The notes: generated by a model from the letters alone, not told the origin. Numbered from the stretch's first letter, positions 5,303-32,498 are shown. The stretch is DNA of 64,000 bases from an uncultured Chloroflexia bacterium (GCA_963813535.1 CAWEZH010000002.1:160001-224000); one strand, 5' to 3'. Numbers and translations: made by a program.

Positions 5303-7093
5303 ATGGCAGACGTCCGAGGCAACCCCTGGGAACACGATCCAGGCCCACCCTCGGGGAGCGGCTGGGCGGAGGTCTTCGCCGATACCCCCAACTATCGCGG
5401 ACTCGGCAACGAGGTCGTCGGGCGCGAAGCGTTTCGCTGGCACCACGGTCCGATGTTCTACCGCGGTCGCCTGGACGGTTCCGCCAAGGTCATGGTGGTC
5501 GGGCAGGAGGGTGCCCAGGACGAATCGCTCGCGCACCGTTCCTTCACCGGCGGGACCGGTGCCCGGATGCAGCATCTGCTGCGGTTCCTCGGTCTCGATC
5601 GTTCGTACCTGTTCGTGAACTCGTTCGTCTACCCGATCTTCGGCCAGTACACGCTCGACCTCCGGAAGCTCGCCCAGGATCCTCGATCGCCGATCGTGAG
5701 CCACCGCAACCGGATCTATGACAAGGCGGTCGTCGATGGCGACGTGCGCCTGGTCATCGCGGTCGGTCGTGCGGCGAAGGAGTCCGTATCCACATGGATC
5801 GAGTCGCACGGAGGGACGGCCCAACCCGAGGCCCTGCACACCGCGACGCTGGGCACCTTGCCGAACCGGGTTCGAGTCGTGGGTGTGGTGCATCCGGGAA
5901 GCGCGTCGGGGGGCTCGACCAGCGCTATCAAGGCTGACTTCGTCCGCGCCATCGGCCGAATCCGCGACTGGCTGCAGGCCGACGCGGGCTGGTTGCCCGC
6001 CGATCCCGGCATGACGCGGAACCTCACCGCATCCTTCCCGTATTCCTCGGCCCCGATCCCGTACCGGGACTTCCCGTTCGGGACATGCCCGCGCCTCGGT
6101 CGGGGCGGGACGTCAAGCAACCGCAGCGACGACCAGCGAGCGATCCGCCTGTTCTCGGCAGCCGGCAAGTACAACGCCGCAGGGGCCCACCTGACCGATC
6201 CGTCGTCGGCGACTGGGACCAACCAGGGGTACGACGACGACCCGGGCGACCTGCCGTATGAGCCGCCGCGCGCCAGTCCGCTCGCCTTCGACGCTGGCCC
6301 GCCGACCAACTTGGCGCGCCTGTTGATGGGGGCCGAGGCGGGCTTCGAGTGGCCTGACTTCGCCTCGCTCGGCGTAACGGCGCACCCGTCGTTCGGCGTC
6401 GGACCGATCTATCGCGGCCGGTTCGGAACCCTGAGCCTCGTCATCCTTGCCGATCAGCGGTCCGCGGACGACACATTCAGCGGCCGAGCGCTCACTGGCG
6501 ACGCGGGTCAACGATTCCAGGGCGTCCTGCGTGCGGCCGGGCTGACGAAGCGCTACCTGGTCATCCGCACGCTGCCCGTCGACACCATGGATCTCAGCGC
6601 GGCCAAGCGCTTGTCGTTGGTCGATCACCCCAAGGTGCGGGCGATGCATCGCGAGCTCCTGAGCCGCGTTCGGTCCGCGAACGGCGGGGTCACCGCGCTC
6701 CTCGCGATGGGCCCCGGCGCCCGGCGGCTCGCCCCGAATGTCGTCCCAGCCGGGCTCGACGTGATCGAGCTCGCAGCGCATGGGGAACCGGGATTCCAGG
6801 CGTCCTGGCAAGCGGCACTGGCGCAGCTCGCGGGGCGCACCTACACCAAGGACGTTGCCAATCCGAGCTTCGATGCCCCGACCACCCGCAGTCAGGTCCC
6901 ACGGATCGATCTGCCCTATGGCACGCCCCGGTGGGTCGGGAGCTCGGGGGATCGAGGCGTACGGCCGATGGACACCGACATCGACAAGCCAACGCCGGAC
7001 TATCTCAAGCTGTTCCTGCCAGCCTGGGTCGCGGGTCTCGCGGCGGCGCCGCTGAGCCCGGCGGAGCAGACCGCGGCCGACCAGCTCAGCTGA
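5303..7093 (+). CDS. Uracil-DNA glycosylase superfamily protein with two tandem UDG-like domains
   Basis: RBS GGGGAGG. Domain 1 VMVVGQEGAQDE..RSFTGGTGARMQHLL..VHPGS; domain 2 LVILADQ..RALTGDAGQRFQGVL. Confidence 0.75.
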   Translation: MADVRGNPWEHDPGPPSGSGWAEVFADTPNYRGLGNEVVGREAFRWHHGPMFYRGRLDGSAKVMVVGQEGAQDESLAHRSFTGGTGARMQHLLRFLGLDRSYLFVNSFVYPIFGQYTLDLRKLAQDPRSPIVSHRNRIYDKAVVDGDVRLVIAVGRAAKESVSTWIESHGGTAQPEALHTATLGTLPNRVRVVGVVHPGSASGGSTSAIKADFVRAIGRIRDWLQADAGWLPADPGMTRNLTASFPYSSAPIPYRDFPFGTCPRLGRGGTSSNRSDDQRAIRLFSAAGKYNAAGAHLTDPSSATGTNQGYDDDPGDLPYEPPRASPLAFDAGPPTNLARLLMGAEAGFEWPDFASLGVTAHPSFGVGPIYRGRFGTLSLVILADQRSADDTFSGRALTGDAGQRFQGVLRAAGLTKRYLVIRTLPVDTMDLSAAKRLSLVDHPKVRAMHRELLSRVRSANGGVTALLAMGPGARRLAPNVVPAGLDVIELAAHGEPGFQASWQAALAQLAGRTYTKDVANPSFDAPTTRSQVPRIDLPYGTPRWVGSSGDRGVRPMDTDIDKPTPDYLKLFLPAWVAGLAAAPLSPAEQTAADQLS

Positions 7094-7095
7094 CC

Positions 7096-10000
7096 ATGCC
7101 CGCTGCACCGCTTCCCCGCTATGGACTGCGCGGGCGGGTGGTCACGATGAACGCAGTCCGCGACGTCGTCGCGGACGGCATCGTGTGGGTCGCCGACGGC
7201 TCGATCAGCGACGTGACACCGGCGAACCAGACGCCGGCCGCCCACGCCGGGTCTCCGGTCGTCGCCACGGCCGGCACGATCTACCCGGGCATGATCGAGC
7301 TCCACAACCACCTCGCCTACAACACGCTGCCGTTGTTCAGGATCCCGCGGCTCTACACGAAGCGAGAGGAGTGGCAGGGTACCCGCGGGTACCGACGGTA
7401 TGTCAGCGGCCCCGCCGGGGTCGTCGCGTCGCTGCCGGACTTGATCCGGGCGACGATCCGCTACGTCGAGTGCAAGAGCCTGATCGCGGGCACGACGACA
7501 TCCCAGGGGCTGACCCTGCGCGCGGCCCCGATCAAGCACCTCTACAAGGGCATCGTCCGCAATGCCGAGCAACCGGACGCGGCCGGCCTGGACGCGGCGC
7601 GACCCAAGATCGGCGACGTGACCCCGGAGGGCCGTGAGTCGTTCCGCAAGTCGCTGGCTGGCAAGGGTGCCCGGATCGTCCACCTGGCCGAGGGGCTTCC
7701 GACCTCGAAGGCCCACGACCACTTCACCGACCTCCAGGCGCCCAACGGCACGTGGGCGATCGGGCCGAAGTTCGTCGGCATCCATTCGACGGCTCTCACT
7801 CCGTCCGACCTCGCCATCGTCGACCAGCTGGGCGGATCGATCGTCTGGTCGCCGTTCAGCAATCTCGCCCTGTATGGCGGGACGACCGACGCCAAGACCG
7901 CCATGGATCTCGGGATCAAGGTCGCCCTCGGCTCTGATTGGTCGCCGACCGCGAGCAAGAACCTGCTTCATGAGCTCAAGGTCGCGCGCATCTGGAGTGA
8001 CGATCAGCAGCTCGGCTTCACGGATCGCCAGCTCATCGAGATGGTGACCGTGACGCCCGCGGAGATCCTCGGCTGGCACGGTCGTCTGGGCTCGCTCGAG
8101 CCTGGCAAGCTCGCCGACATCACGGTCGTTTCCGGCAAGACGGGCGAGCCGTATCGCCATCTCGTCGACGCGACCGAGTCGGACATCCGCGTCGTCGTCA
8201 TCGGTGGGATCGCCCGCTACGGGACGCCCGCGATGCTGGCGAGACTCAGCCCTGTCGATGAGCAGGCCGACGTCGCCGGCAAGCCTCGGGCGTTCCATCT
8301 CGACGTGCACGATCCCGATCCGGTCCTGGGTCCCATGGGACTCACCGACGCGACCGCGACCCTAGCCGATGCGCTCGCGCACATGCCCGAGCGCGCCGCG
8401 GCCATCGGGTCCGTCGAGCTCGGTGTCGTTGCCGCCCAGGCCGTGGCCGGCGCGGACGCGGACGAGCGCTGGTTCCTGGAACTCGACCAGCCACCCATCG
8501 CCGGCGTCTCGGCGACCCTCTTCGACGGCATCGCCCCGGCATTGCTGGACGTCGTGATCGGCGCCGAGAGCTTCGCGTCGATCGCCATTGCCCTCAAGCT
8601 CGATCCCCTAGCGACCGAAGGCGACGACGCGTTCTTCGACATGCTGGCCAACCTCGAGAACCTCCCGGCAGTCCTGCGGGACACGCTGCCGGGCCGCTAC
8701 GGCGAGGTGCCGCGGGCTCCCACAGAGGGGGTCGGGCTCGAGGACGATGACCTGGCGATCGCACCTCTACCGCTGTCGGAGTTGCTCGAGCGTGCGGGCG
8801 ATCTGACCCTCGCCGATCGACGGCTCATCGTCCAGCAAGCGATGGTCCTGCTCGACCAGGCCTACGTCCATCTGCCGATGAAACGGGCGAGGTACGCGGC
8901 TGATCCGCTGCAGCGCCTGCGACTGATGGCGCACCGGCTTGAAGCTCTGGCGCCGACCGACGAGCTCGGCCCCGAGAGCCTGTTCCATGAGGAGCTCATC
9001 GAGATCTTCACCGCCCTTCGTGACCTGCACACCCACTACGTCCCGCCCGAGCCGTACCGGTCGCACACGGTGTTCCTGCCGTTCCTCGTCGAAGAATGCA
9101 CGCGGGCGGGTCGGCTGCAGTACCTCGTGTCCAAGGTCGCCCACGGAGCCGAGCTCGACCCGTCATTCGCACCGGGGGTGGAGGTGACCCACTGGAACGG
9201 AACGCCGATCCGACGGGCCATCGAGCGCAATGCCGAGAATCAGAGCGGAGGCAACCGGGCGGCTCGGATGGCACGCGGGCTCGACGCGCTGACGATCCGC
9301 ACGCTCGGCCGCACAGCGCCACCGGATGAGGACTGGGTCGACGTGGCCTACCTGACCCCAGAGGGTGGCGAGGGACTGGTTCGCACCCGCTGGAGCACCT
9401 ATCAGCCGCTCGAGCCGTCGCCCTTCGGGGATCTCGAGCAGGCATTCGCCAGTGCGGTCCCGGTCAGGTCCGGCAATCGGGGCCGGCTCGGCGCGCTCGG
9501 TGTCGACGACCAGACCGCGACCGTCAACCTGGTCCGGCGCGACCTCTACGCTCGAGGCTGGCAGCGGACGGCAGCCTGCCGGGTCCGACGAACTGGTCAC
9601 CGAGCTGCCCGGGATCCTGCGCGCAAGGATCAGGGGGACGAGTGCGGGGGACGTCCTGCACATGCGGATCTTCACGTTCGTGGTCCCGGATCCCGGGGCG
9701 TTCGTCCAGGAGTTCGTGCGCCTCGTGCAACTCAGACCCAGCGTCGGCTTGATCGTCGACGTCAGAGGCAACGGCGGCGGCGACATCCGCGCTGCGGAGC
9801 GCCTGCTGCAGGTCATGACGCCCCATCCGATCGGACCCGAACCGACGCAGTTCATCGTCAGCCCATTGGTCCGTCGCCTGTGCATGGCCAACCAGGGTGG
9901 CCCGATCGACCTCACGTCCTGGGCGCCCTCGGTCGTCGATGCGGTGGAGACCGGTGCCACCTTCTCGACTGGGTTTCCGATCACGTCGGCAGTGGACGTG

Positions 10001-10648
10001 AATGACCTCGGCCAGGGCTACTACGGTCCGGTCGTCCTGATCACGGATGCCCGCTGCTACAGCGCCACGGACATCTTCGCCGCCGGATTCCAGGACCACG
10101 ACATCGGGCGGATCGTCGGGGTCGCCGAGCGTACAGGTGCCGGCGGAGCGAACGTGTGGACGCACCCTCTGCTCCGGGCGCTGCTACCCGACCAGGACAA
10201 TCCGCTCAAGGAGCTTCCGAGACAGGCATCCTTCCGCGTGGCGGTACGCCGCACGACGCGCGTGGGGTCGCATGCCAGCGAGCTCCTCGAGGACCTGGGT
10301 GTCTTCGCTGACACGGTGCATGCCATCACGGACGCCGATCTGCTCGAGGACAATCGGGACCTGATCGAAGCCGCCGTTGCCGCGATGCAGGGGCGCGCGA
10401 CGAGGCGACTGGTGGCCGACGTGTCGCCGGCGGGCGATGGCGTGACGATCGACGTGGCCACGACCAACCTGGACCGGGTCGATGCCTATCTCGACGGTCG
10501 CCCCGTTGCTTCCGAAGACGTGCAGGACGATGAGTGCACGTTCGTCCTTCCGCACGCGATGATCAGCAACGGCGGGGAGGTGCGGCTGGAAGGGTTCCAA
10601 GGTGGCACGCTGAGCGCCGCGCGGCGACTCATGATCCCGATCGGATGA
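7096..10648 (+). CDS. Amidohydrolase (deaminase-like)-S41 peptidase fusion, frameshift ~9560
   Basis: ELHNH, HLAEG, GIH, LGSDWSP, GKLADI in N-half. S41 motifs IVDVRGNGGG, CYSATDIF, TGAGGANVW in ORF 9365-10648. The S41 N-terminal helices (YVHLPMKRA) are in frame with the amidohydrolase. Confidence 0.8.
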
Positions 10649-10683
10649 GGACCGTCGACCACCGCGCCGACCTGATGGGGGCA

Positions 10684-11022
10684 TCAGCCCTCGGGTTCGG
10701 CCTCTTCGTCGCCCCACGATCTTCCCTCGCCGATCCGCGTCCGGCGCGATCGCTGGAATGCCGCGGACTGGCGCAGGTTCCATGCCTGCACGCCCATTCG
10801 GGCGACCTCGTCAAGACCGCCCAGGTCGTCCGGAACGGGGCCTTTGAACATCCGCACCGTCTCGGGCGTTTCGGCCGACCCGGCGGTCCCGCTTTCCGCG
10901 AGCTCGACGACCAGTGCCCGATCGCCGTATGCCTGGACCGGGCGACCGCCAGCGGCGGCGAGCCACGCCCGAACATCGTCGGGAGAAGCGGCGGGGGCCA
11001 GGACCACGAAGTACTCGGCCAT
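10684..11022 (-). CDS. Small protein homologous to the N-terminal (pro)domain of the divergent metallopeptidase
   Basis: VQAYGDRALVVEL / GLDEVARMGVQAWNLRQS..GEGRSWGD align by eye with LHRYGSRVLIGEV / GLSEAEAVGLAAWDLRVS..LDGQRWDA of the 11068 gene. Confidence 0.75.
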   Translation of the reverse strand: MAEYFVVLAPAASPDDVRAWLAAAGGRPVQAYGDRALVVELAESGTAGSAETPETVRMFKGPVPDDLGGLDEVARMGVQAWNLRQSAAFQRSRRTRIGEGRSWGDEEAEPEG

Positions 11023-11067
11023 CGATCACACGTTCTGCCGGACCACGGGACGCTCGGAGGATAGGAC

Positions 11068-12527
11068 ATGGCGAAGCGTGACGAGATCGCCAAGCAGGGA
11101 CTCATCATCCTCGACGCCAAGGGCGTCGCCGACATCCGCGGGACGGCGGGGCGGCTCGAGGACGTCGGTGTGAGCGTCCTCCACCGCTACGGTTCGCGGG
11201 TCCTCATCGGTGAGGTTCCACCAGCGGGTGGCCGGGGCGTGGCTGCCGAGCGGGGCGTGCGCTCGTTCCACGCGGGCGCCGTGCGTGCCAAGCCTCGTGG
11301 CCTGAGCGAGGCGGAGGCCGTCGGGCTGGCGGCGTGGGATCTGCGTGTTTCGCGGCGATACGCAACCGCCAAGGCGAAGCGGCCACTCGACGGTCAGCGC
11401 TGGGACGCCGCGGGCGTCACCCCACTCATCCCGCCAGACGGCCCGCTCATGACCCATGTCGACGATGAGGGGCCGGCCCGCGCGTTCCGCGCGGTGGGCG
11501 ACGAGACCAGCGCCTATCTCATCGGCGCCGTCGCCGTGGGAGCTCATCCTCGTCGAGGGTCCCACAGCGGACCTGCAGTTCAGCGAGGCCGAGCGCACGA
11601 AGGTCGTCGCCGAGGTCCAGGAGGGATTGACCTGGCTCGGCACCCGGGAACCCAAGGCCGGTGTCTCCTTTGCCTACGACATCCGGATCGTGCAGGTGGA
11701 TCGAGCCCCGAACCCGGCGCTGAGCGGCTACGAGCCGCTCGAATCGCACTGGCGCGACCCGGCAATGGCGAAGCTCGGGTTCGCCCCGAACTTCGGGGGC
11801 GTCAAGGAGTACGTCAAGGCCATCCGCGCCAACCTCGCCACGAAGTGGGCCTACGTCGCGTACTTCACGAAGTACCCGGTCCAGCACTTCGCCTATGCCT
11901 CCAAGCCGCGCCTGGTCATGCACTACGCCAACGACGGCTGGGGGCCCGACAACATCGACCGCGTCTTCACGCACGAGACCGGCCACATCTTCGGCTGCCC
12001 GGACGAGTACTCGGCAAGCAACTGCTCGTGCACCACGAAGGCGGGCTATCTGCGTGAGGTCAACGGCAACTGCCAGAACTGTGCGACGTCCTTCACGCCG
12101 TGCCTCATGGCGGGGAACACCTGGGAAATGTGCGCCTTCACGCCTGCCCACCTTGGCTGGCGCGACACCGATGGTGATGGCGCGCTGGACCCGGTCGATC
12201 CGGTCGGGAACCCGAACCCCCTGATCGATCTGGGCGGGTTCTGTTCGCGGTTCCCGTTCATCTGCCGGCTGGTCGGCCTCGGCGCCACAGCCGGCGCTGT
12301 GGCCGGCGACGATCCGGGCTGGCGGTCCGGCGTCACCGGTGCGATCCCCGCCGAGCCGCGGGGCGAGGCGGTCCCGGTCGAGTTGCTCCGCCAGGTCCTG
12401 ACCGCGGATGAGATGGCGCGCGTGGAGGCCGCGGTCCGTGCCGAGGAGGATCTGCTACCTCGAGGCCCTCGAGCGCAAGCTTCGGACCGCAGCGGACCAG
12501 ATCGCCCGCGAACGAGCCAGTCGCTGA
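11068..12527 (+). CDS. Metzincin-type zinc metallopeptidase (HExxHxxGxxD) with N-terminal prodomain; frameshifts ~11541 and ~12452
   Basis: RBS GGAGG. HETGHIFGCPDEY, Met-turn CLM, Cys-rich segment, DTDGDG Ca-binding-like motif. Reconstructed end YLEALERKLRTAADQIARERASR* at TGA 12525-12527. Confidence 0.75.
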
Positions 12528-13024
12528 TGGATACCGCGGAGATCGAGCAAAAGGTCCTGGCGACGTCGGCGAGTGGTAATGACGCTCAGCTCGGCGGACC
12601 GGTCCGCGTCCTCGACACGGCCGAGGGCGCCGACGGTGGCTCGACGTACCAGGTGTCGGCGTCCCTGCTCGTACCGATCGACGAGGACGATCCGGACCTG
12701 ACCGGGGTGTCCATCGCGGTCCCTGTGACGGCCACCGTCGAGATCGACGACGACGGGGCGATCGTCGGGATCGATGTGCCGGTCGACGCGGCCGCCCAGC
12801 GCGAGGCGAGGTCGTTCACTCGCAACCTGATCGCCCGTGGGGCTGTCAGCGGGCTGGCGGCCAGCGGACCCGTGCGACGCGGTCCTGGGCTCGCCACCCG
12901 CCCGACGCACGAACTGACAGTCGACGAATTCGGTCGGCGGGTGATCCGCCGGACGGGATTTACCGCGACTAGCGCGCCGGCCATGCCGGAAGACACGCGC
13001 GCCCACGATGGAGACAGCCCGTAG
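12527..13024 (+). CDS. Small protein homologous to the C-terminal domain of the downstream metallopeptidase
   Basis: TGATG coupling at 12525-12529. EARSFTRNLIARGAV..PTHEL..RRTGF vs QARAFARSLVANGDV..PSHEI..VRVGF in the 13041 gene. Confidence 0.7.
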   Translation: MDTAEIEQKVLATSASGNDAQLGGPVRVLDTAEGADGGSTYQVSASLLVPIDEDDPDLTGVSIAVPVTATVEIDDDGAIVGIDVPVDAAAQREARSFTRNLIARGAVSGLAASGPVRRGPGLATRPTHELTVDEFGRRVIRRTGFTATSAPAMPEDTRAHDGDSP

Positions 13025-13040
13025 CGGCAAGGAGCGTCCC

Positions 13041-14531
13041 ATGGCGACCATCACGTACGTCCCGAACGACCCATTGGCGAGTGGCGGACCACCCACCAGA
13101 TCGACGAGGGCCAGCAACTACCCACGCGGTGACATCGCCAAGTTCGATATCCAGCCGACGGCGGTCGCCGGCAAGTTCGACCCGCACACGCCGGAGTTCC
13201 AGTACTGGCAGGCCAAGCTTGGGCTGATCGCCGGGCTGCGTGCCTGGCGCCAGATCGATGGCCGCTTCATGCGACGCTGGTTCGGGGACCAGAACCAGCT
13301 AGCCGTGCGCACTGACGCCGGCGACGACCTGAACGCGTTCTACGATCGCGACAGCCTGCAGTTCTTCTCGCACACGTTCGGCGGGGTGACAGTCAACTCC
13401 GCCGAGAGCGTGGACGTCGTGACGCATGAAGAAGGTCATGCCTTCCTCGACGCCATCCGGCCGGACTTCTTCGATGTCCCGTTCATCGAAGTCGGAGCGC
13501 TCCACGAGGCGTTCGGCGACTGCATGGCGATCGTCACCGCGCTCGAGGACCGCGCCATCCGGGACGCCGTCCTGGCGTCCACCCCGGACCTCGCGGCCAA
13601 CCACTTCGTGGAAAGCCTGGCCGAGGCGCTCGGCGACGCGATCGCGCGGGAGTTCGGAGCGGGCAGCGTCGACGTCGGAGCGCTCCGCCATGCCCTTAAC
13701 ACGTTCCAGTACGCTGATCCGACCTCACTGCCACCGGATGCCCCCGCGGACCAGCTCTCCGGTGAGGTCCACAGCTTCGCCCGGGTGTTCAGTGGCGCTT
13801 TCTACGACGTCATCCGGAACGTCTACATCGGCGGCACGCGGAAGGATTCGCTCGCGCTGCGGAAAGCCTCCCGGACGGCGGGCAAGCTGCTAGTGGCAGC
13901 CATCCGGATCGTGCCCGCCACGCCGAGCACGTTCCGCGGCGTCGGCCAGCGGATGCTCCAGGTCGACGTGTCGAAGAATCGCGGAGCCAATACGGCCGCG
14001 ATCACAGAAGCGTTCGCGGGTCATGGGATGTCACTGCCCGCCCCGGCCACGTCCCTGCCGGTCCCCCTGCCCAGGCAGACCCGCGCCGGGGCGGCTCCGG
14101 AGCTACGCCGGCGGCTCGCGGTCCCCCCAGGCACCAGGATCGAGATCACACCCGTCGATTCCGACCTGCATGGCGAGATCGCCCACGTCAGCGCGTACCG
14201 GCCGTTGCCCCTCGATGGCGCCGGGCTTCAGGGCGTCCGGATCATGGTGCCGGGCATCGCGCGTGTGGCCACCACCCGCCGCGGCCGGTCGATCACCGGC
14301 GTCCTGGGTGAGGTCACCTCGTCCGAGGGTGATGCGGCGGTGCAGGCCCGTGCCTTCGCGCGCTCGCTGGTCGCGAACGGCGACGTGCGCACCGCCCCAC
14401 GGGCGGCCCGACGGCTCGCCGCCGCTCCGCAGCCGCCGACGGCTCGGGTGCCGCACAAGCCCAGTCACGAGATCCGACTCGTCGGCGGCGAGCCGACGCT
14501 CGTCCGGGTCGGCTTCTCCCACCGGCACTGA
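13041..14531 (+). CDS. M36/M4-like zinc metallopeptidase, no signal peptide
   Basis: RBS AAGGAG. NAFYDR, VVTHEEGH, LHEAFGD, EVHSF. Confidence 0.85.
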   Translation: MATITYVPNDPLASGGPPTRSTRASNYPRGDIAKFDIQPTAVAGKFDPHTPEFQYWQAKLGLIAGLRAWRQIDGRFMRRWFGDQNQLAVRTDAGDDLNAFYDRDSLQFFSHTFGGVTVNSAESVDVVTHEEGHAFLDAIRPDFFDVPFIEVGALHEAFGDCMAIVTALEDRAIRDAVLASTPDLAANHFVESLAEALGDAIAREFGAGSVDVGALRHALNTFQYADPTSLPPDAPADQLSGEVHSFARVFSGAFYDVIRNVYIGGTRKDSLALRKASRTAGKLLVAAIRIVPATPSTFRGVGQRMLQVDVSKNRGANTAAITEAFAGHGMSLPAPATSLPVPLPRQTRAGAAPELRRRLAVPPGTRIEITPVDSDLHGEIAHVSAYRPLPLDGAGLQGVRIMVPGIARVATTRRGRSITGVLGEVTSSEGDAAVQARAFARSLVANGDVRTAPRAARRLAAAPQPPTARVPHKPSHEIRLVGGEPTLVRVGFSHRH

Positions 14532-14534
14532 CCG

Positions 14535-16902
14535 TCAACCGGCCTCCGGCTCCAGCCGCATGGCCGGGATGGCCGAAGAACTGGTAGGCCATGTAGGTCG
14601 ACGACGTCGTCTCGGGGGTGTCGCGGAATGCGGCGCGCTCCGTGCGCATGATCTCGGCGGGTGCCTCGCCACGCATCGCCCGCTCGTAGAAGCGGATGGC
14701 GATGTCTCGAGCGAGTCGGTCGTCGATCGACCACAGCGGTGCGATGACGCCTGCTGCGCCGGCGAACAGGAAGGCCGCCGCCAGACCGGCATGATCGCCG
14801 AGGAGTTGGCTGCCGCGGCCGACCTGGCATGCGTTCAGGAAGACGAACGGATGGCCGCGCAGCGGGATCCCCTTGACGGCCAGGGGATCGAGGGCAGAGC
14901 CGTCGACGAGGATCAGGCCATCCCTGGCCTCCTCGGCCTCGTAGGTGCCGTGCACGGCGAAGTGGATGACATCGGCGGCCGGACGCCCCCTCAGGAGGTC
15001 GAGGATGCCGCCGATCGTGGCATCCACCGGCATCCCCTCGTAGATGCGCACGATGTCAGCGGCCTCGGCCTCCGCCTCGGCAAGGCGCTGCCAGCCTGGC
15101 AGCTCGTAGACGCCCGATACGGCGGCGACACCCTGGACGGCCACGCTCATGGGCGGCGGGAGGGCGGGCCGCCGCTGGCCGAGGACCCAGCGCCCGACCG
15201 TCGCCTGGGCGGCAAGGAAGGGCGGGAGGTCGGGATCGAGCGGCGGATCCACGACGGCGAGCTCCCACGGGACGTACGGCTCGGCCGAGAGGAACAGGAT
15301 GGACGGCGGCCGGGCGCCATTCCGTGTCGCGATCTTTGACAAGGCGTTCCAGAACTCGATCGGCAGCTGCTCGGCGATGGTCAGCCCGATCCCGCGCAGG
15401 GCGACGAACTGCGTCGGACGACCCTCCACCTCCTGCATCTCGTCGACGATCCGACGGAGGTCCGCCGCAGGATCGCCGCCGATATCGATACGGATGGGGG
15501 CGTCCGGCATGTCGATCGTCGGATCGGCCGCGAGCAACTGGACGAGGAGGCCACCGCTCGCCTCGGATTCCGCACGCTCGATCCGTACGGTCAGGTCGGG
15601 CGCCACCTGGCCAGCCGGCAATGACAGGTCGACGCCGGGGGCAGGTGGCTGGGCCGGAGCCGACGCCAGGAGATCGGCCGACCGGACCAGGGCGACCGAA
15701 CGCACGGCGAGACCGATCGGATTGCCGTCGATCGAGTACATCGCGCGGATCGAGGTCGACATGACCGGTGCAACCTGGGCATCCGGCACGAGCTGGATCG
15801 TCACGGACGGGTAGGGGGCCTCCGCTGTGACCGGCAGGTCGATCCGCCAGGACGCGCCGGCGTCCGCGAGCCGGAGGCCGTCGGCAACGAGTTGGATGGT
15901 CATCGTGTACGCGCCGACGCTCGATGGCGGTCGGTGGAGCGCCTCCCCGACGACGCGTGCGTCCGGGCGGTCGGCGAGCCCCACGACGAGATCGAACGGC
16001 TGCTCGGCGACGACGGCATCCGGACAGGACAGCCGGGCGTAGGTCGTCCGCGGCGGATCAGCCTCGCTCCCGATCGTCGCGCCGCCGGCGCCGATCGTGG
16101 CACCGGGCCCGACGGCTTCGGGCTCAGGCACGGTCGTCGGCCCGGCGGGTCCACCGGGGCTTGGCGGGGGGCTTGGGGGGCGTGCGGCGGGCGGACCGGC
16201 TGCCGCTTACGGCCGCGCTCGGATGCCGCCTGGGTCAGGCCGCCGACGACCTGGTTGAGCACCCCGCTGATCGCCCCCGGGATCGCCGTCCAGAGGACTG
16301 CCGAGGTCGGCGTGATCCCCGTGATGCCGGCCTGCTGGGCGAACAGCAGGAGGCCGATCCCTATCACCACGCCACCCACGACGGCGAGCACACCGTTGCG
16401 GCGCCCCACAGTCAGGAGCGCACGGAGCGCCATGAGGACGCCGACCACGATGATCCCGATCGCCACGAATCCGGCCGGGGTCCCGAGCGGCGAGCGGCCG
16501 GTCACGTTGACCCAGCCGTGGACCTGGCAGACATCGGTCGCCGCGGTGACTTCGTACAGACCCGACCCGAACCGCGCGTAGTCGGAGACGGGAAGCGTCT
16601 CCGGACCATTCGGTGGTGGGGGCGATCGGCTCGTCGGCGATCGTCCAGGTGGTCGGCCAGACGCTGATCGCGATGGTCGCCCGGGTCACCGGTTCGAGGG
16701 ACTGGCCGAACACCCGTGCCACGGCATCGGCGTCGATCGGGATCGCCCGATCCGGACTGTCGGCATCGCCGAGGGAGTGCCGGTCGATGAAGACGACACA
16801 CTGTCCGATCGTCTGGGCACTGACCGGCGCGGAGAGGATCATGACGATGGCCACGCCGAGCAGGAGAGCGGCGGCGGACCGCACGCGGGGACGGGGCCGC
16901 AT
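14535..16902 (-). CDS. Membrane-anchored CHAT (caspase-like) protease: signal peptide, extracellular domain, TM helices, Pro linker, C-terminal CHAT; about three frameshifts
   Basis: Joined from ORFs 16207-16902, 15900-16505, 14314-16131 and the 14535 stop. VPWEL, VIHFAVHG, FVFLNACQVG, IAPLWSIDD. Confidence 0.7.
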
Positions 16903-16918
16903 CAGCTAGGCATCGGCG

Positions 16919-19270
16919 TCATCGCCAGCTCGGGTCGATGCTGTCTCCCCCTAAGGACTTTGTTAGGTCTTCTTCCTTCCCGGTGGCCAGAACACGCACC
17001 AGGATGTGCCACTCGTCTCCGACGCGGCGGTAGAAGGCGATCCGGTCACCTTCGGGCGAATAGACGGGACCGCCCTCGTCGGCCGAATCGTCGGTGATTC
17101 GGCTCTCCTCCCTCGTTTCGACGTCGATCGACCAGATGTCCCGTCTCGCGCGAGGCTCGTTGCGCGTGAACACGAGTCGCCCGCCGTCGGGGTGCCATCT
17201 CGGGTTGCGGTCGACGGTACCGCCGGACGTCAAAGGCTCGGGATCGCGACCTGGTACCCAGATGTAGATCGATAAGACATCGTCATTGCTATCGCGGTTC
17301 GACGTGAACGCCATCCGCGCGCTATCCGGGTCCCAAGCCGGTGAGCTGTCATCGGCGCCTCGTTGCCCCACGACCGGTTTCGGTAGACCAGCCCTGAGCG
17401 AGGAAACGCGCCAGATGTCGTTCAGCTGCTTGTTCGTCTCGTCGCGGTCGCTGTTGAAGTAGATGAACTTGTTCCGTGCGAAGTCCGGGACGCGGTCGTC
17501 CGCAGGGCCACTCGTCATCGGGGTCTGATTCCCACCATCCTTGTCCATGGTGTAGATGTCACCGGTGCCGTTGTTGATCCGCGTGAATGCGATGTGCGTC
17601 CCATCGGGCGACCACCTCGGCCACCGGTCCGGAACGCTGTTATCGGTGAGCCGGTCCGGCTTGAGGGTGTCCGGATCGATGAGGTAGATCTCGGAGTCCT
17701 CGCCGTCGGTACCGTCCGGGTCGAACTCGAACAGGATCCCCGTTCCGCCCGTCGGTGGAGCGATGCTCGCTGACGCGGAAGCGTCGCTTGGGGGACCACC
17801 CGTCGGTTGGGTATCCGATGCCGAGAAGGAGGCGGATGCAGTGCCGGAGCCTGGGCTCGCGCTTGCCCCGCCCCCGCCTCCGAAGATGTTGACGGCCAGG
17901 AGGAGCACAAGCAGGACGGCTCCGCCGCCGGCCGCGAGGATCGCGATCGGCCGCCAGGGCGGCGGCGGCGGTGGCGGCACCGGCGTGGGACGCTCAGGTT
18001 CCGGTGCTTCAGGCTTCGGAGGTTTGAATAGCTCCTCGAGTTCATCCTGGCTGAGCTCGGGGACTGTCTCCGGTGGCTCCGGTTCGGGAGCTTCCGGCTC
18101 GGGCGGCGCCGGTGGTACGGCGGTACCAGTATCGGCGGCGGGGGCGCCTCGACCACTGGGGCCGCCGCGACGTTGAACAGCACGCCATCCGGTGTCTGGA
18201 GGTACAGGACCGGCGTGCCCCATTCCAGCGTGTCCTCGAAGGCGGTGGCGAGACCCTTCCGTGCCTCGGTGAGCGCCGTGTCGACCGGGATGCCCCGCGC
18301 GACCGCGCCATAGAACGATCGGCTCAGTTCGATCGCGGCCTCATCGGTGATCTCGTACTGCATCGCCACGACGGCCGGAGTGCCCTTGCGGACGAGCGTG
18401 CCCGCCGTGCTCGAGAACACGTCCGTGACGTCGCTTCGACCGGTGTCGCACGCGTTGAGGACAGCGAGGCGAAGCGGTTCGTGGTCCCCGAGGATGCGTC
18501 CGAAACTCGTGGCCCGCTTGTAGTCGGCCTTGCCGTCGGGGCGGGCGAAGGCAACGATGCCCTCCTTGCGGTTCTCGTCGAAACCGCCGTGGCCGATGAA
18601 GTGGAGGATGTGCCAGGGGCCCTCCCACAATGCCTCCTGGAAGTCCTGCCACGTCTGCCCTGGGATCCAGGTGAGCTCGATCAGGCCCTTGGCCTGTATC
18701 GACTCCATCGCGGCGGTGAGACGGGTTCGCTCTCGCTCCACATCCAGCCCGTCGAGGTCCGAAGGACTGACCGCGACCGCCAGGATGCGGATCGGCGGCG
18801 TCACGAGGAGCGGCTCCATGCTCGACGGCAATCGGGATGTAGCGGACCAGCGGCGAACCGGTCGAGAGCGTGACGAAATCGCCGCGAACCGGGTCGAAGA
18901 GGTACTCCCACGGGAGCGCCGCGAGTTCCGCGTCGTCGCACCGGAACTTGATCCGCATGCCGGACTGCTGGTGCTTTGCCTCCTGGCGGCTCGCCTCGTA
19001 GCGCGACAGGACGTCGCCAGAGAACAGTGCGGTCCACAGTTCCTGGCCGAACTCCTGGACCGTGCGGCTCTCCGGTGATGAGATCCGGCGGCGCGTCCCG
19101 CTCGAGCGGAGGAGCGCGATCTGGAGGGCCTGCAGCCGGTTGGTGAGCGTCGGCTGGTCGAACGGGAAGCGCATCGATGACGTCGCCTCGCCAGCCGGCG
19201 ACCGCACCTTGACGGTGTACGACCCCGCTTCGCCGCCAGTGACATCGATCTCGAAATCGAGGTACTGCAC
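16919..19270 (-). CDS. CHAT protease with Pro-rich linker, single TM and C-terminal TolB/PD40 beta-propeller; two frameshifts
   Basis: GTG 19270 after GGGGAAGG. LPWEYL, HILHFIGHGG, VLNACDTG, EWGTPVLY; TM IAILAAGGGAVLLVLLLAV; repeats PRWSPDG, PAWDPD, PRWHPDG, PVYSPEG. Confidence 0.8.
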
Positions 19271-19370
19271 TGGTCGCCTTCCCCGCGCGCCCGATGTCAA
19301 GGCTACCCCGGGTCGCAAGCAGATCCGTTACAGGGGCGGTGCTATCGTGGCCACTCAGCGAGGTGGAGGC

Positions 19371-21377
19371 ATGCCTGCGGACGGATCCGGCTCCACGTCC
19401 TTCGTCGTCATCCGGACCGATTGGTCGGTCCTGACGGCCCTCCGGGCGCTCGACGCGACTGACGCGACCCACGTGATCATCGCGCACCACGGCGATCGTG
19501 GCGACGAATACCACCTGTTCACGGCCGACGACATCTTCGCCGAGCTCCAGACTCATCCGACCGAGGCCAACCTCACCTCAGTGCTGCCTTTGGCCGAGTG
19601 GCCGCCGACGCCGACGATCGCGCCGGGCGATGCGATCGGCGATCGGACGATGGCGGTCGTCCTCGATCGTGGCCGCGCGGTCGGTTTCATCGATCGCAAC
19701 GCCCCGAGCGTTCCAGGCCCGACGGCAGAGACCGTCCAGCCGGGTGATGCCGGCGGCCCCGGTGGGTGGACTGGCGAGGAGGTCGTCGAGCCGGTGCGAC
19801 GTGGCGGTGGGCACCGCGCGAAGCCGCCCGCATCGGCCGGCGATGGCGAACCTGTCGCTGCGAATGGCGGACCCGACGCCGAGGATGGCGGGACCGAGCG
19901 ATCGCTCGAGGCGGAATTTCCTGACTCGGTCGTGGTCGACACGGTGGAGTGGCTGCTGGTCTCGATCGTGAACGCGAAGCCGACAGCGTCGGGTCTCGCC
20001 ATCGAGGTCGCGGCGGGCGAATCGATCGACGTCCTGGTCCAACCGCGGCGCGGGTTCAGCGTGGAGGGTGACGCTCAGGGCACGCTCAAGGTGCCGGCCT
20101 CCGGCGAGAGCCTGCCGCTCCAGTTCAAGGTCAAGGCCCTCGACGAGGGAAAGGGCCTGATCCGCGTCCTGGCCTTCCACCTCGGCGAGCCGCTCGGCGT
20201 CATCACCCTCGAGCCGACGGTGAAGGCCGCGTCCAGGAGCCGGGCTCGCGGACGGACGACCTCGGCGCCTGCAGCGAGGAAGGGCCAGGCGCTGACGGCG
20301 CCGAGCCCGCAGGTCCCGGACATGTCGTTGTTCATCGAGGAGCGCGAGGCCGGCGGAGCCCTCGAGTTCGTCATCCGCCTGACCGCCACGGACCCGGCAC
20401 TCGACCTGAACCTTCGTCCGTTCGGGCCGTTCCGTCTCGAGGTCGAACCCGCCGAGTTCTTCGGGACGTTCTTCCAGGAGATCGACGAGCTGCCCCTGGC
20501 CACGAAGGAACAGCGCGAGGTCGCCGAGCGACGGTTGGCGGCCAAGGGTGCGTACCTGACCGAGTCCCTGATGCCCCCGGAACTGCGTGAGGCGCTCTGG
20601 CTGGTTCGCGATCGGATCGCCTCGGTCATCATCCAGTCCGAGGAGCCCTGGATCCCGTGGGAGCTCTGCCGCCTCATGGGCCGTGACGGCGATCGGGTGA
20701 TCGAGGGTCCGTTCCTGTGCGAAGCCTTCGCGGTCACGCGCTGGTTGCCCGGTGAGGGGTTCAAGCGCCCCCTCCGGCTCACCAACATGGCCCTGATCGT
20801 CCCGGCCGATTCCGGCCTGCCGCTCGCGCCCGAGGAACGCGACTTCGTCCTGTCGCTGGCCGGGGACGGTCGTGCCGTCACGGCGATCGATCCGAAGTTC
20901 GCCGACGTACAGGACGCGTTCGCGGCCGGCGTCTACGACGGCTGGCACTTCACCGGGCACGGCGCAGCGCGCGATTCGAACCCGGATCGTTCGTCGATCA
21001 TCCTGAGCGGCGAGGAGTCGTTCACGCCCGAGGACCTCAGTGGCCAAGCCGCGAACCTGGGCATCCCGCATCCGCTGATCTTCATCAACGCCTGCCAGGT
21101 CGGCCGCGGCGGGATGGGCCTGACCGGTATCGGTGGCTGGGCGCGACGCTTCGTGCAGACCGGGGCCGGCGCGTTCATCGGGGCGTACTGGTCGGTCTAT
21201 GACGTGTCGGCCTTCGCCTTCGCCAAGGAGGTCTATGCGCGGCTCCTGGACGGGATGCCGATCGGTGATGCGGTCCGCGAGGCACGCGCCAAGGTCCGTG
21301 AGGATGGTGACCCGACGTGGCTCGCCTACACCGTGTTTGCCGATCCGCTGGCCACCGTCGAGTCCGGACCGAGCTAG
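19371..21377 (+). CDS. Soluble CHAT (caspase-like) protease with possible degenerate CBS pair and beta-sandwich domain
   Basis: RBS GGAGG. IPWEL, GWHFTGHG, FINACQVG, FIGAYWSV, WLAYTVFADP. Confidence 0.85.
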   Translation: MPADGSGSTSFVVIRTDWSVLTALRALDATDATHVIIAHHGDRGDEYHLFTADDIFAELQTHPTEANLTSVLPLAEWPPTPTIAPGDAIGDRTMAVVLDRGRAVGFIDRNAPSVPGPTAETVQPGDAGGPGGWTGEEVVEPVRRGGGHRAKPPASAGDGEPVAANGGPDAEDGGTERSLEAEFPDSVVVDTVEWLLVSIVNAKPTASGLAIEVAAGESIDVLVQPRRGFSVEGDAQGTLKVPASGESLPLQFKVKALDEGKGLIRVLAFHLGEPLGVITLEPTVKAASRSRARGRTTSAPAARKGQALTAPSPQVPDMSLFIEEREAGGALEFVIRLTATDPALDLNLRPFGPFRLEVEPAEFFGTFFQEIDELPLATKEQREVAERRLAAKGAYLTESLMPPELREALWLVRDRIASVIIQSEEPWIPWELCRLMGRDGDRVIEGPFLCEAFAVTRWLPGEGFKRPLRLTNMALIVPADSGLPLAPEERDFVLSLAGDGRAVTAIDPKFADVQDAFAAGVYDGWHFTGHGAARDSNPDRSSIILSGEESFTPEDLSGQAANLGIPHPLIFINACQVGRGGMGLTGIGGWARRFVQTGAGAFIGAYWSVYDVSAFAFAKEVYARLLDGMPIGDAVREARAKVREDGDPTWLAYTVFADPLATVESGPS

Positions 21378-21398
21378 GTCCGGAGCTGGCCCGACGCG

Positions 21399-22202
21399 TC
21401 AGGCGGGCCGCCGGCGCTCCTGGAGGACGTGGAACGCGGCCATCGCGACCGTGAGGAAGATCAACCCGCCGATGTATGAGCTGACGGTCCGCCCGTTCAG
21501 TTCTCCATAGAAGAGGGCGGCCGTGACCAGAAGGGCGACGCCGTTGACGATGAACAGCCGAGCCGCCGTGCGGATCTCGTCCCAGTCGCGAGCGAAGGCC
21601 ATGGTCCCGCACCAGACCGACCAGCCGAGGAACCACGCGGCGACGATGCGCGCGTCCAATGGGTTGAGCTCCCAAGCCCAACGGTGCGCTGCGAACTCGG
21701 GGTTGATCAGGAGGAGCAGGCCATGCATGAGCAGCAGCCCCGTCACGAGGACGAGGAACCGCTTGAACCACAGGAGGATGGGGCCTCCGCTGACGGGGGC
21801 CTCGGCTCGCATGATCCCGCGCGGGATCAGGTAGATCATCACCACCGGCTCGAAGATGTAGAGGATCACCCAGATGTGGGCCGTCGGCGGCGTGAACTGT
21901 GACCAGGTGAATTCGTCGATGTGCCAGAACGTGGCGAGCAACAGCGTGCCGGTGAAGGCGAGGTTGCCCCACACGATCCAGCGGAGCCGGATCCAGTCCG
22001 CCTGGCGGGCGACATTGAGGAAGAACAGTGTCCGGAAGATGTAGCCCGCGCCGATGAAGGCTTGGGCGTAGCGCGGCTGGACGTCCCACGCAAAGTATTC
22101 GGGCACGAACTGGGGGAACACGAGCATCCACACGGCGAACCACGCGGCCGCGAGCGCGCCGAGAACGCCCCAGAGAACCTGTGAGCGAGGTGGCCAGCTC
22201 AT
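21399..22202 (-). CDS. Polytopic membrane protein with internal two-fold repeat
   Basis: About 8 hydrophobic segments. FPQFVPEYFAWDVQP..FIGAGY..ADW repeats as NPEFAAHRWAWELNP..IVAAWF..RDW. Confidence 0.75.
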   Translation of the reverse strand: MSWPPRSQVLWGVLGALAAAWFAVWMLVFPQFVPEYFAWDVQPRYAQAFIGAGYIFRTLFFLNVARQADWIRLRWIVWGNLAFTGTLLLATFWHIDEFTWSQFTPPTAHIWVILYIFEPVVMIYLIPRGIMRAEAPVSGGPILLWFKRFLVLVTGLLLMHGLLLLINPEFAAHRWAWELNPLDARIVAAWFLGWSVWCGTMAFARDWDEIRTAARLFIVNGVALLVTAALFYGELNGRTVSSYIGGLIFLTVAMAAFHVLQERRRPA

Positions 22203-22209
22203 CGAGGCT

Positions 22210-23031
22210 TCAACGCTCGACATCGATCGTGAAGCTGGCCGTGTCGAACAGCCATTCCTTCGGGCGACCGAACAGCCCGGCCTCGCGAACCCAGCACGTG
22301 ATGCCGATCCGTAGTTGTTTCGTGGCCTTGGGCACGAGCAGTGTCTGGAGCAAGGCCTGGTGCCCGGCGATCTGCTGGTCCTGGGCGTAGAGGCTCCACT
22401 CGGCGCCGCCATAGCCGTCGCCGGGGCCGGAGATGACCTTGGGCACGGAGACGGTGAAGCTGATCGACAGCTTCGCGTTCTCATTGATGCTCGCGCCGAC
22501 CTTGGCCGCGGTCAGGGTCACGCCGGGCACGGTGCTGATCGCGGCCTGGAATTCCTTCGGCACCTCGAGCGATCCGTCGAGGCCGATGTCGACGCTCGCC
22601 TCGGCCCCGACTTTGGCGATGTCGAGCAGCTCGGTCGACGGTTGGACGTCCACGGTGTCGGCCTGGACGTCGAACAGCTCGACCTTGTAGCCCATCCCCC
22701 AGACCTTCGCTGGCTTGCGGCCGGGAGCCGGCTGCGCGGTCACCCCATGCGACAGCAGCACCGGGAACTTCCGCCCGAGTCCGGCCACGATCATCGGGTC
22801 GGGGGTCTTCTCGGCGAGCTTCCACAGGCGGCGCAGGTCGATCGCCCGCGGCGCCGGCATCGCCAGGCTGAACGGCGCGTTCGACGGTAGAGCACGCGTC
22901 GCCTCGTCACCGCCCCGCCGGACCGGACCCGCCGCCTTCAGGGCGTCGGCGGCCATCTCCTTGAGCACGCCGTCCTCGACGTCTTGTGGGTTGCCTTGCG
23001 CCTCGAGGGTCCGCGTTCCCCGCTCCGCCAT
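22210..23031 (-). CDS. Hypothetical beta-rich protein (possible beta-pore-forming fold)
   Basis: RBS GGAG, ATG 23031, coding-like codon usage; alternating amphipathic strands VGAEASVDIGLDGSLEV and KVGASINENAKLSISFTVSV. Confidence 0.65.
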   Translation of the reverse strand: MAERGTRTLEAQGNPQDVEDGVLKEMAADALKAAGPVRRGGDEATRALPSNAPFSLAMPAPRAIDLRRLWKLAEKTPDPMIVAGLGRKFPVLLSHGVTAQPAPGRKPAKVWGMGYKVELFDVQADTVDVQPSTELLDIAKVGAEASVDIGLDGSLEVPKEFQAAISTVPGVTLTAAKVGASINENAKLSISFTVSVPKVISGPGDGYGGAEWSLYAQDQQIAGHQALLQTLLVPKATKQLRIGITCWVREAGLFGRPKEWLFDTASFTIDVER

Positions 23032-23256
23032 CTTGTCTCCTCCCGCTCGGCGCCGCACCGAGACGCTACCAGGCAGACAGTTCGCGCAGGCCCCGACCCC
23101 TCTGACGGCCATGCCGAGACCGCCCAGTCTAAGCCTGCATGTCGAGTGTTCCCGAGTCGCTGCGAGTAGGGCGTGCGCACTTGCGACGTCGAACTACGCT
23201 GGCAACTACTGCGGAAGCTGCACCACCGGGCCGCCGCCGCAAGAAGGGACGCGACC

Positions 23257-23928: not shown

Positions 23929-23958
23929 GGCGTCTGCCTGGCGGGTAGCCTGTCGGGC

Positions 23959-25523: not shown

Positions 25524-25550
25524 GACGGACCCTCACCGGAGAACGTGACC
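25524..25550 (-). promoter_or_regulatory. ECF41-type promoter toward the nitroreductase gene
   Basis: GGTCACG-N16-CGTC on the minus strand. Confidence 0.65.
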
Positions 25551-25552
25551 GG

Positions 25553-28871: not shown

Positions 28872-28986
28872 CGGGTCGAGCATACGACTCGGGCGTGAGC
28901 ACATGATCGCGCGGGGCGCGGCGCTCCCATAATGTCGCCATGGTCGGTGTCAGCGTCACCGCTGCAGTCCTCGACCGATAGCCGTC

Positions 28987-32425: not shown

Positions 32426-32498
32426 CGCGGCTCGGGCCGAGCGCGATCGCCGGGACCGCCCCGCGCCATACTCCGACCGTCGACAGCGGAGGAGGCGT

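Follow-up and report, generated by a model that had tools for sequence, protein, structure and literature searches.

Two adjacent, putatively membrane-spanning CHAT proteases in an uncultured Chloroflexia bacterium and the recurrence of their pairing

To our knowledge, almost all of the caspase-fold proteases studied in bacteria, such as those of Craspase and SAVED-CHAT and the gasdermin-activating ones, are soluble and answer signals inside the cell. In particular, the Craspase and SAVED-CHAT proteases, like separase, are soluble and cytoplasmic, with RNA-guided complexes or cyclic nucleotides as their activators. Membrane-anchored caspase-fold proteins are already known as well (HetF, DdvA and orthocaspases), and here we describe two genes, A and B, that are predicted to encode further ones. 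They lie next to each other on a stretch of 64,000 nucleotides from an uncultured Chloroflexia bacterium (GCA_963813535.1, CAWEZH010000002.1:160001-224000), which is called the window throughout and from whose first letter positions are counted:

19270..16919, minus strand: gene A, about 783 amino acids (aa) read through two frame breaks, with a GTG start at 19270 behind ggggaagg
16902..14535, minus strand: gene B, about 788 aa once three frame breaks are bridged, with an ATG start at 16902

Very probably both encode membrane-spanning CHAT proteases, and we lean towards regarding them as parts of a conserved cluster, made up of genes A, B and C and, downstream and in convergent orientation, M1 and M2, in which a signal from the envelope would be relayed to proteolysis.

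The described systems that come nearest to this arrangement are three. In Anabaena sp. PCC 7120, HetF is reported to be a membrane protease with the order CHAT, transmembrane (TM) helix and TPR, and a component of the divisome (PMC8406250); its protease activity cleaves PatU3 (PMC9457339). In Myxococcus xanthus, DdvA is a single-pass transmembrane anti-sigma factor with a periplasmic TPR-CHAT region and a cytoplasmic zinc anti-sigma domain, which dimerises and for which autoproteolysis in trans has been proposed (PMC11506125). Finally, an in silico survey of cyanobacterial orthocaspases reports TM helices in 67 of 473 proteins and PD40 in one (PMC8283722). Neither paired genes nor a sensor module of the type found in B is described in the available part of the orthocaspase survey (PMC8283722), and in the literature searched we found no description of the architecture of B, of its portable N-terminal module or of the recurrent pairing of A with B.

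Domain architecture of A and B

A small beta/helical domain opens protein A at its N-terminus, and the CHAT domain comes next; a linker rich in Pro and Glu then leads to a single TM helix, behind which stands a PD40 beta-propeller of TolB type. The protein carries no signal peptide, and its TM helix, WRPIAILAAGGGAVLLVLLLAVNIF (about 17960-17890), is strongly hydrophobic. Pfam recognises the CHAT model PF12770, of the separase/caspase-fold clan CD, in the middle piece (E 5.9e-22; 78.9 bits against a cut-off of 24) and PD40 in four stretches of the last piece (E 6.2e-26), and at a relaxed threshold it finds no named domain in the N-terminal 146 aa. The same order is found without any interruption in homologues, retrieved with the CHAT part of A as query and with domains taken from precomputed Pfam annotation, in which CHAT and PD40 share a single open reading frame (ORF): P0129 (811 aa), P0133 (787), P0134 (799) and P0135 (903); a further intact homologue lies at 6561..8981 of locus L014. 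The His-Gly motif of A lies in HFIGHGG and its Asn-Ala-Cys motif in LNACDTG, and H227, G228 and C274 are invariant across 25 A-type sequences. The AlphaFold2 (AF2) model of P0129, with a mean predicted local distance difference test score (pLDDT) of 74.4, comprises the N-terminal beta/helical domain and a CHAT fold, a disordered stretch at residues 370-520 that corresponds to the linker and the TM helix, and a confident beta-propeller at 520-811. The top Foldseek matches of this model are TolB structures (2w8b_B, E 1.3e-19, root-mean-square deviation 3.3 A over 291 columns); the list is dominated by the propeller, and the CHAT fold of A is assigned from sequence models. Since A has no signal peptide, a single TM helix and a propeller of TolB type, the simplest topology would place the CHAT domain in the cytoplasm and the propeller outside.

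With HetF, A shares the order of an N-terminal CHAT domain, one TM helix and a C-terminal repeat domain. It differs in that the repeat domain is a PD40 propeller and not TPR, in that the NCBIfam HetF model NF045509 gives the L014 homologue of A 80.7 bits (E 7.7e-23) against an equivalog cut-off of 1200, in its phylum and in being paired with a second membrane CHAT gene; on its sequence, A is thus most fittingly regarded as HetF-like in architecture with an ectodomain of TolB type, and not as a HetF orthologue. TolB itself is an extracytoplasmic protein that binds proteins and peptides through its propeller and acts in envelope constriction. The C-terminal domain of A has the TolB propeller fold, whereas the N-terminal domain of TolB is absent from A, the NCBIfam TolB model TIGR02800 matches an A homologue with 94.5 bits against a cut-off of 343 (E 6.6e-27; only positions 257-417 of 418), and no Tol-Pal genes lie nearby. 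Proteins built in this way are not rare: a strong hydrophobic segment follows the CHAT domain in 77 of the 120 best A-type CHAT homologues, and the Pfam domains found among A-type homologues include PD40, LGFP, CARDB, FGE-sulfatase and Big_2. CHAT-TM-ectodomain proteins therefore form a common class; HetF has been characterised, whereas most of the class is unstudied.

Protein B is built in the opposite direction. Its N-terminal half starts with a signal peptide that has its cleavage site after VSA; the ectodomain behind it is a beta-sandwich that holds two Cys residues, and then come TM1, a short basic loop, TM2, another short loop and a third helix. In the C-terminal half, a linker rich in Pro leads to beta-sandwich domains, which are followed by a helical region and by the CHAT protease; Pfam recognises the latter in the last piece (E 1.3e-23; 84.3 bits against a cut-off of 24). 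The His-Gly motif lies in FAVHGT and the Asn-Ala-Cys motif in LNACQVG, with H633, G634 and C674 invariant in 84 B homologues. Both ectodomain Cys residues are conserved in at least 90% of the same 84 sequences, which suggests that they may form a disulfide. A search with the CHAT piece of B returned 603 proteins, many of 770-900 aa and 50-96% identical, and in P0007 (770 aa), P0002 (791), P0004 (795) and P0006 (794) a single ORF covers all of the pieces in order; in L005, a clean short-contig record, B is intact as an 894-aa ORF (7888..10572). The AF2 model of P0007, built on the 84-sequence alignment (mean pLDDT 87.1), begins with the helix of the signal peptide and a beta-sandwich (35-134). 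Three helices come next (142-163, 170-190 and 198-224), and after the disordered Pro-rich linker the chain forms beta-sandwich domains (268-455), a helical region (460-510) and finally the CHAT fold. With Foldseek, the last 360 or so residues match the Craspase TPR-CHAT protein (7y84_C, E 3.5e-10), separase (5fby_A), SAVED-CHAT (8tl0_D) and gingipain R, and the beta-sandwiches match macroglobulin-type and arrestin-type folds; at a relaxed threshold, Pfam finds neither DUF7363 nor any other named domain in the beta-sandwich region and the ectodomain. Both A and B are predicted to be proteolytically active, the catalytic His/Cys dyad being kept.

B thus shares the CHAT/separase-type caspase fold with the TPR-CHAT protein of Craspase (Csx29), with separase and with SAVED-CHAT. 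Unlike the Craspase and SAVED-CHAT proteases, A and B are, by prediction, membrane-anchored with domains outside, and they have no TPR, SAVED, CRISPR or cyclic-oligonucleotide-based antiphage signalling (CBASS) context. DdvA is similar in being a membrane protein whose CHAT module is tied to transmembrane signalling, which for A and B is a prediction; it differs in that the CHAT domains of A and B are predicted to be cytoplasmic, in that no anti-sigma or TPR match occurs in either and in that no sigma factor gene of the extracytoplasmic function (ECF) type is adjacent, the flanking genes being C, which encodes a CHAT protein, and the metalloprotease-like M2. The surveyed orthocaspases, for their part, are Peptidase_C14 proteins, whereas A and B are CHAT proteins. 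Finally, metazoan death receptors and caspase cascades are comparable by analogy, since there, too, the membrane links a domain on the outside with proteolysis by caspase-fold enzymes and more than one such protease is involved; in A and B, however, no homologous receptor is found, Pfam detects no death-fold or adaptor domain (nor any anti-sigma or TPR domain), and the protease lies within the receptor chain itself.

A first-pass annotation of this DNA, made from the sequence alone, had proposed most of these features. Its reading of A as CHAT, Pro linker, TM helix and PD40 propeller agrees with Pfam, with the single-ORF homologues, with AF2 and with Foldseek, and B does begin 16 nt past the stop of A (stop 16919, ATG 16902), as it had stated. 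Both motifs are indeed kept in both proteins, down to the invariant His, Gly and Cys, and the membrane and CHAT parts stand in one chain in clean homologues (P0007 and L005 for B, P0129 and L014 for A) and not in separate genes. For B, the signal peptide, the Cys-containing ectodomain, the Pro linker, the beta-sandwich and the CHAT domain were all recognised correctly, whereas the third of its proposed TM helices turns out to be just moderately hydrophobic.

The gene pair and its cluster across genomes

The linkage of A-like and B-like genes was followed in a scan of one genome per species with an alignment of full-length B homologues, which returned 80 loci; these belong to Chloroflexota (uncultured Chloroflexia, Limnocylindria/Limnocylindrales, Dehalococcoidia and Tepidiformales), to many Actinomycetota and to a few Acidobacteriota and Verrucomicrobiota. 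Neighbours were called by tblastn with pieces from the window (for A-like genes, at least 150 bits) and by ORF extraction. An A-like CHAT gene stands near the B-like gene in 20 of the 80 loci, in two phyla. Six of these A-like genes are co-directional with B and abut it (within about 20 nt); about ten are divergent from it, with ORF-to-ORF gaps of 126-203 bp where measured (L026, L046, L056, L065 and L076); one is 2.5 kb away (L053) and those of four other loci are 3-6.5 kb away. Since close adjacency recurs, in differing orientations and with differing ectodomains, the pattern argues for a functional coupling of A with B, and in the window the two genes may form one operon, given the 16-nt gap and an order that is conserved in six related loci.

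These six loci (L001, L002, L003, L010, L012 and L014) share with the window a larger arrangement, in which C is divergent, A is followed by B, and M2 and M1 are convergent:

19371..21377, plus strand: gene C, encoding a third CHAT protein, soluble; divergent from A across a 100-bp spacer
11065..13024, plus strand: M1, a snapalysin-like metalloprotease-like gene with an HExxHxxGxxDEY motif, HETGHIFGCPDEY
13008..14531, plus strand: M2, a thermolysin-like metalloprotease-like gene with an HExxH motif (HEEGH) and weak M4/M36 matches

In protein C, Pfam recognises CHAT (6.3e-18; 65.7 bits against 24) and DUF7363 (2.2e-9), and the N-terminus matches TCAD7 just below the cut-off (E 8.7e-5; 23.1 bits against 24). 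TCAD domains (Pfam PF19973) occur, together with nucleoside triphosphatase components, in the ternary conflict systems of the Aravind group; no STAND or MoxR-type nucleoside triphosphatase was found among the neighbouring ORFs scanned. C aligns with the cytoplasmic part of B at 29% identity over 426 aa (E 4e-24), and from this similarity it is taken to be a paralogue of that part. M2 is convergent with B, their stop codons being 3 nt apart. Within the window, M1 is interrupted at about 11520 and at 12453, and its homologue in L005 (10961..12478) has no signal peptide. M1 and M2 share their C-terminal 76 aa (39% identity, E 6e-4); a common adaptor that would link this region with the N-terminus of the DUF7379 protein of Actinomycetota, mentioned below, was considered and set aside (BLASTP best E 0.18 and 3.6). 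Relatives of M1 or M2 stand beside B in 14 of the 80 loci, all of them in Chloroflexota and in two different arrangements; in L005-L008 and L016, B is followed by a co-directional M1-like gene.

In Actinomycetota the pair takes another form. The B-like protein is soluble there, having neither signal peptide nor TM helix, and upstream of its gene stands a divergent A-like CHAT-TM gene (gaps of 126-203 bp in L046, L056, L065 and L076):

L065, 5825-12164, and L053, 3394-12186: Actinomycetota variant, found also in L046, L056, L076 and L080

This variant occurs in isolate genomes, namely Janibacter sp. HTCC2649 (L065, where the two intact genes lie at 5825..8020 and 8146..10614) and Ornithinimicrobium tianjinense, and in the two loci checked for it (L065 and L053) a DUF7379 alpha/beta-hydrolase-like gene lies 3' of the B-like gene. 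The ectodomain of the A-like partner varies across loci: it is PD40 in L012, L014, L023 and L046, and CBM9_1 in L053, L065, L076 and L080.

PADLOC-DB v2.0.0 gives generic CHAT matches only for the cluster, among them a match of A to the SAVED_CHAT model (E 4.8e-16), together with weak BovA matches for C and for the A-like protein of Janibacter; B, M1 and M2 match nothing. Scans of 14200-19700 for promoter-like and terminator-like sequences returned no sites, and an Rfam scan of 10000-24000 found nothing. Elsewhere in the window, a metallo-beta-lactamase-fold protein (2836-4077, plus strand) matches the PADLOC LmuA model (E 6.9e-18), and a major facilitator superfamily transporter with a cyclic-nucleotide-binding domain (28933-30678, plus strand) is matched by Pycsar/TIR effector models through that domain only. 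At 48629-49540 (plus strand) stands a gene for an ECF-type sigma factor (Sigma70_r2/r4), and the ORF after it (49363-50757, plus strand) matches PD40 weakly (E 1.9e-5); the two may code for a sigma factor and an anti-sigma factor that has a propeller as its ectodomain. Two more ECF-like sigma genes occupy 25526-26455 and 41880-42713.

The proposal that A and B belong to an envelope-sensing cluster has to be weighed against a housekeeping or developmental role of the HetF type, in which A, and perhaps B, would cleave a specific regulator in division, envelope remodelling or differentiation, with no conflict system involved. TolB, the nearest fold of the A ectodomain, is generally known to work in envelope constriction. 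The domain order that A shares with HetF and the match of its CHAT region to NF045509 point the same way, as does the precedent of HetF itself, a divisome membrane CHAT protease that cleaves PatU3 (PMC8406250; PMC9457339). Furthermore, PADLOC on 36 other ORFs of the window revealed no clear defence island around A and B, which counts against a conflict role for the cluster. The HetF score, however, falls far below its cut-off and the C-terminal domain of A is PD40 and not TPR; the cluster contains two metalloprotease-like genes besides its three CHAT genes; the sensor module of B is also found fused to TIR; and the patchy spread and variable ectodomains look accessory rather than core, so that we judge a housekeeping function unlikely.

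It is also conceivable that A and B are independent CHAT genes that are neighbours by chance in CHAT-rich genomes, with no functional coupling. Several observations weigh on this side and against the coupling. No A-like neighbour was found in 39 of the 54 assessable B loci; in L011 and L041, the genes C, B, M2 and M1 are kept and A is absent; the adjacency in 20 of 80 loci is a raw count, taken without a genome-wide baseline of CHAT density; and CHAT-TM-ectodomain genes are, as seen above, very common. Because of the loci without A, among them L011 and L041, A cannot be obligatory for B. Against chance, most of the 20 A-like genes abut B, either co-directionally or divergently, and they are found in four separate clusters of the B tree as well as in two phyla: in this tree (FastTree, 72 sequences; 9 loci with ORFs under 450 aa left out), the presence of an A-like neighbour requires four changes, with 15 loci scored as present, 39 as absent and 18 as not assessable. 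A complex prediction with the CHAT part of A (from L001, 370 aa) and residues 262-770 of P0007 gave an ipSAE of 0.00 in two runs without controls and counts neither way. Taken together, chance neighbourhood appears quite improbable, and coupling of A with B remains the preferred explanation of their adjacency.

Membrane topology of B and its portable module

Whether a signal received outside could reach the protease of B depends on the third helix of its N-terminal half. We consider it likely that B has three TM helices and that its CHAT domain is cytoplasmic. The 84 CHAT-fused homologues have a TM1 and a TM2 of clear hydrophobicity and, between the two, a basic loop (mean 3.23 Lys plus Arg; at least 2 in 75 of 84), whereas the loop between TM2 and the third segment is not (mean 0.11). 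AF2 renders the third segment as a helix of 27 residues (198-224) with a pLDDT of about 94.

Further support comes from relatives of the module that lack a CHAT domain. The N-terminal 230 aa of B, searched against 1.84 billion representatives, gave 216 matches, many of them stand-alone proteins of about 225-250 aa, such as P0244, P0249, P0252, P0274 and P0275. In 14 stand-alone-like forms, picked by a simple motif, the third segment reaches a hydropathy (Kyte-Doolittle over 19 residues, KD19) of at least 1.6 in 11 cases, with a mean of 2.03, and several such relatives end in tails rich in Lys and Arg. In P0264, the module is followed by a C-terminal TIR_2 domain, and in P0265 and P0301 relatives of the module carry an N-terminal FecR domain. 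No Pfam family covers the module, that is the signal peptide, the two-Cys beta-sandwich and the three helices, and by its occurrence in these proteins it appears to be a protein family in its own right. TIR domains generally act in the cytoplasm. The hydrophobic third helix and basic tails of the stand-alone relatives and the fusion of the same module to TIR thus favour a cytoplasmic CHAT domain in B. Furthermore, since the B-like proteins of Actinomycetota and protein C have neither signal peptide nor TM helix, the module of beta-sandwich and CHAT domains would work in the cytoplasm in those proteins.

The alternative is that the membrane part of B is a hairpin of two TM helices, with the beta-sandwiches and the CHAT domain outside the cytoplasmic membrane, as a surface or periplasmic protease like DdvA or the gingipains. 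Here, too, some of the evidence goes against the topology that we prefer. In the CHAT-fused homologues, the third segment is weakly hydrophobic, with a mean KD19 of 1.25 and a value of at least 1.6 in just 11 of 84, and the residues that follow it are only mildly basic (1.96 Lys plus Arg against 1.65 Asp plus Glu); moreover, gingipain R is among the Foldseek matches, and a periplasmic TPR-CHAT protein is documented in DdvA (PMC11506125). A two-TM hairpin is difficult to reconcile with the clearly hydrophobic third helix and basic tails of the stand-alone relatives, with the joining of the module to TIR in P0264, with the lack of a signal peptide in the B-like paralogues, gene C, M1 and M2, and with the long and confident third helix of the AF2 model, and it is therefore considered very unlikely. 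The first-pass annotation had placed the CHAT domains inside the cell; for B this receives indirect support from the basic TM1-TM2 loop, the relatives of the module, the TIR fusion and the soluble paralogues, with the third segment as its weak point.

Frame breaks in the window and possible role of the pair

Neither A nor B is a single ORF in the window. The DNA is GC-rich (66-73% in 2-kb windows), and the coding signal is unbroken on the minus strand from 19270 to 14535, with five frame changes and no gap, as judged from a plot of GC content at third codon positions (GC3), a six-state segmentation and ORF tables. Gene A passes from frame 1 (19270..18833) to frame 0 (18831..18118) and back to frame 1 (18115..16922, stop 16919); gene B passes from frame 0 (16902..16600) to frame 2 (16595..16179), to frame 0 (16176..14563) and to frame 2 for its tail (stop 14535):

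18832..18833, minus strand: gene A, first frame break; one extra base relative to five relatives (DNA alignment)
18116..18118, minus strand: gene A, second frame break, within the Pro-rich linker (ILVPP / PPAPPEPE); a loss of one base or a gain of two
16596..16604, minus strand: gene B, first frame break (EWSG / LPVSDYARF); one extra base relative to five relatives
16175..16185, minus strand: gene B, second frame break, where six C follow one another within the Pro-rich linker; most simply, one C missing
14561, minus strand: gene B, third frame break; one extra base relative to five relatives, needed for the stop at 14535

Once the extra base at 18832/18833 is removed, gene A reads YIPLPSSMEPLLV, the same as homologue P0123, and without the extra base at 14561 the tail of gene B becomes GLRLEPEAG followed by the stop, matching the homologues. 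From 16179 onward, the frame of gene B agrees with homologue P0002 (PPSPPPSPGGP...). The first-pass annotation had listed four joins; those near 18830, 18120 and 16590 are correct and the one given at about 16140 lies some 40 nt too far downstream, while the fifth, at 14561, was implied by it and missing from its list.

The five breaks are most probably assembly errors and not signs of decay. Ordinary enzymes elsewhere in the window are split likewise, with Pfam coordinates that continue across frames, so that frameshifts are a property of the window as a whole. The phosphoenolpyruvate mutase at 42580-43483 (plus strand) is divided between two overlapping frames (profile positions 1-134, then 129-238 of 240), the DAO-type oxidoreductase at 47721-48990 (minus strand) is divided in the same way (2-225, then 219-353 of 353), and in the saccharopine dehydrogenase at 32253-34739 (minus strand) the NADP-binding domain is read in one frame and the C-terminal domain in another. 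In a 17.5-kb alignment, private frameshifting indels in well-aligned context number 4 in the window and 36, 3, 2 and 10 in four relatives, where they fall at other places; of the single-base insertions private to the window, those at 18832/18833, about 16600, 14561 and 12453 allow a comparison with relatives. The nearest database proteins (P0121, P0123, P0028 and P0001) also hold out-of-frame stretches. The pieces 3' of each break keep a strong codon bias and GC3 and are 93-98% identical in protein to L002, and the correct frames of A and B are free of stop codons.

Two observations speak against this explanation. The breaks at 18116-18118 and about 16175-16185 sit in hypervariable linkers that cannot be aligned to relatives, and because of this hypervariability the nature of the second break of gene A is ambiguous; in addition, at least two of the three comparable insertions in A and B lie outside homopolymers, which is unusual for the commonest type of long-read error and casts some doubt on an assembly origin. 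That the breaks are real, and that A and B are decaying pseudogenes here with the intact architecture confined to relatives, is nonetheless highly improbable: the same non-homopolymer insertions and a density of five breaks per 4.7 kb, somewhat above the approximately one per 4 kb across the 17.5 kb compared, favour it, whereas the equally split enzymes of the window, the private indels of the four related assemblies, the stop-free frames, the strong GC3 and the 93-98% identity to L002 oppose it.

If A and B are membrane-spanning proteases, as we consider very probable, their outside domains would bind an envelope or foreign protein or glycan, their TM segments would pass the signal to the cytoplasmic CHAT proteases, and these would cut each other or co-conserved partners, which could be C and M1/M2 or, in Actinomycetota, the DUF7379 hydrolase. 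The likeliest outcome would be an abortive or cell-death type of response to conflict or stress. Since the sensor module of B occurs fused either to CHAT or to TIR, such a response seems preferable to a housekeeping function, and a role of sensor-driven proteolysis in conflict or stress can tentatively be put forward, at somewhat less than even confidence. The first-pass annotation had pictured extracellular sensing as a direct trigger of cytoplasmic proteolysis, analogous to a death receptor, against the background that clustering often activates caspase-fold proteases; of this picture the receptor-like architecture is supported, whereas ligand sensing, clustering and a death-receptor-like outcome stay conjectural. 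A bolder extension, which we regard as unlikely although it follows from the same features, is a transmembrane relay of two caspases, in which an A-type receptor protease and a B-type CHAT protease would act as an initiator and executioner pair, and the module of B would represent an undescribed family of surface receptors for death or immunity effectors. In such a relay, a signal at the envelope (phage, a competitor or wall damage) would switch on one protease, which would cleave and activate the other, and the second would unleash effectors, namely the M1/M2 metalloproteases in Chloroflexota or the DUF7379 hydrolase in Actinomycetota.

Were A and B instead HetF-like housekeeping proteases, they would represent a modest extension of a known class. 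If the proposed coupling is true, they would provide a case of regulated proteolysis in bacteria that is driven directly from the cell surface, with the sensor outside, the protease inside and two proteases paired, and hence a functional parallel to, not a homologue of, the receptor-driven activation of caspases in animals. The N-terminal module of B, being found alone and joined to TIR, would then be a candidate for a general family of surface receptors.

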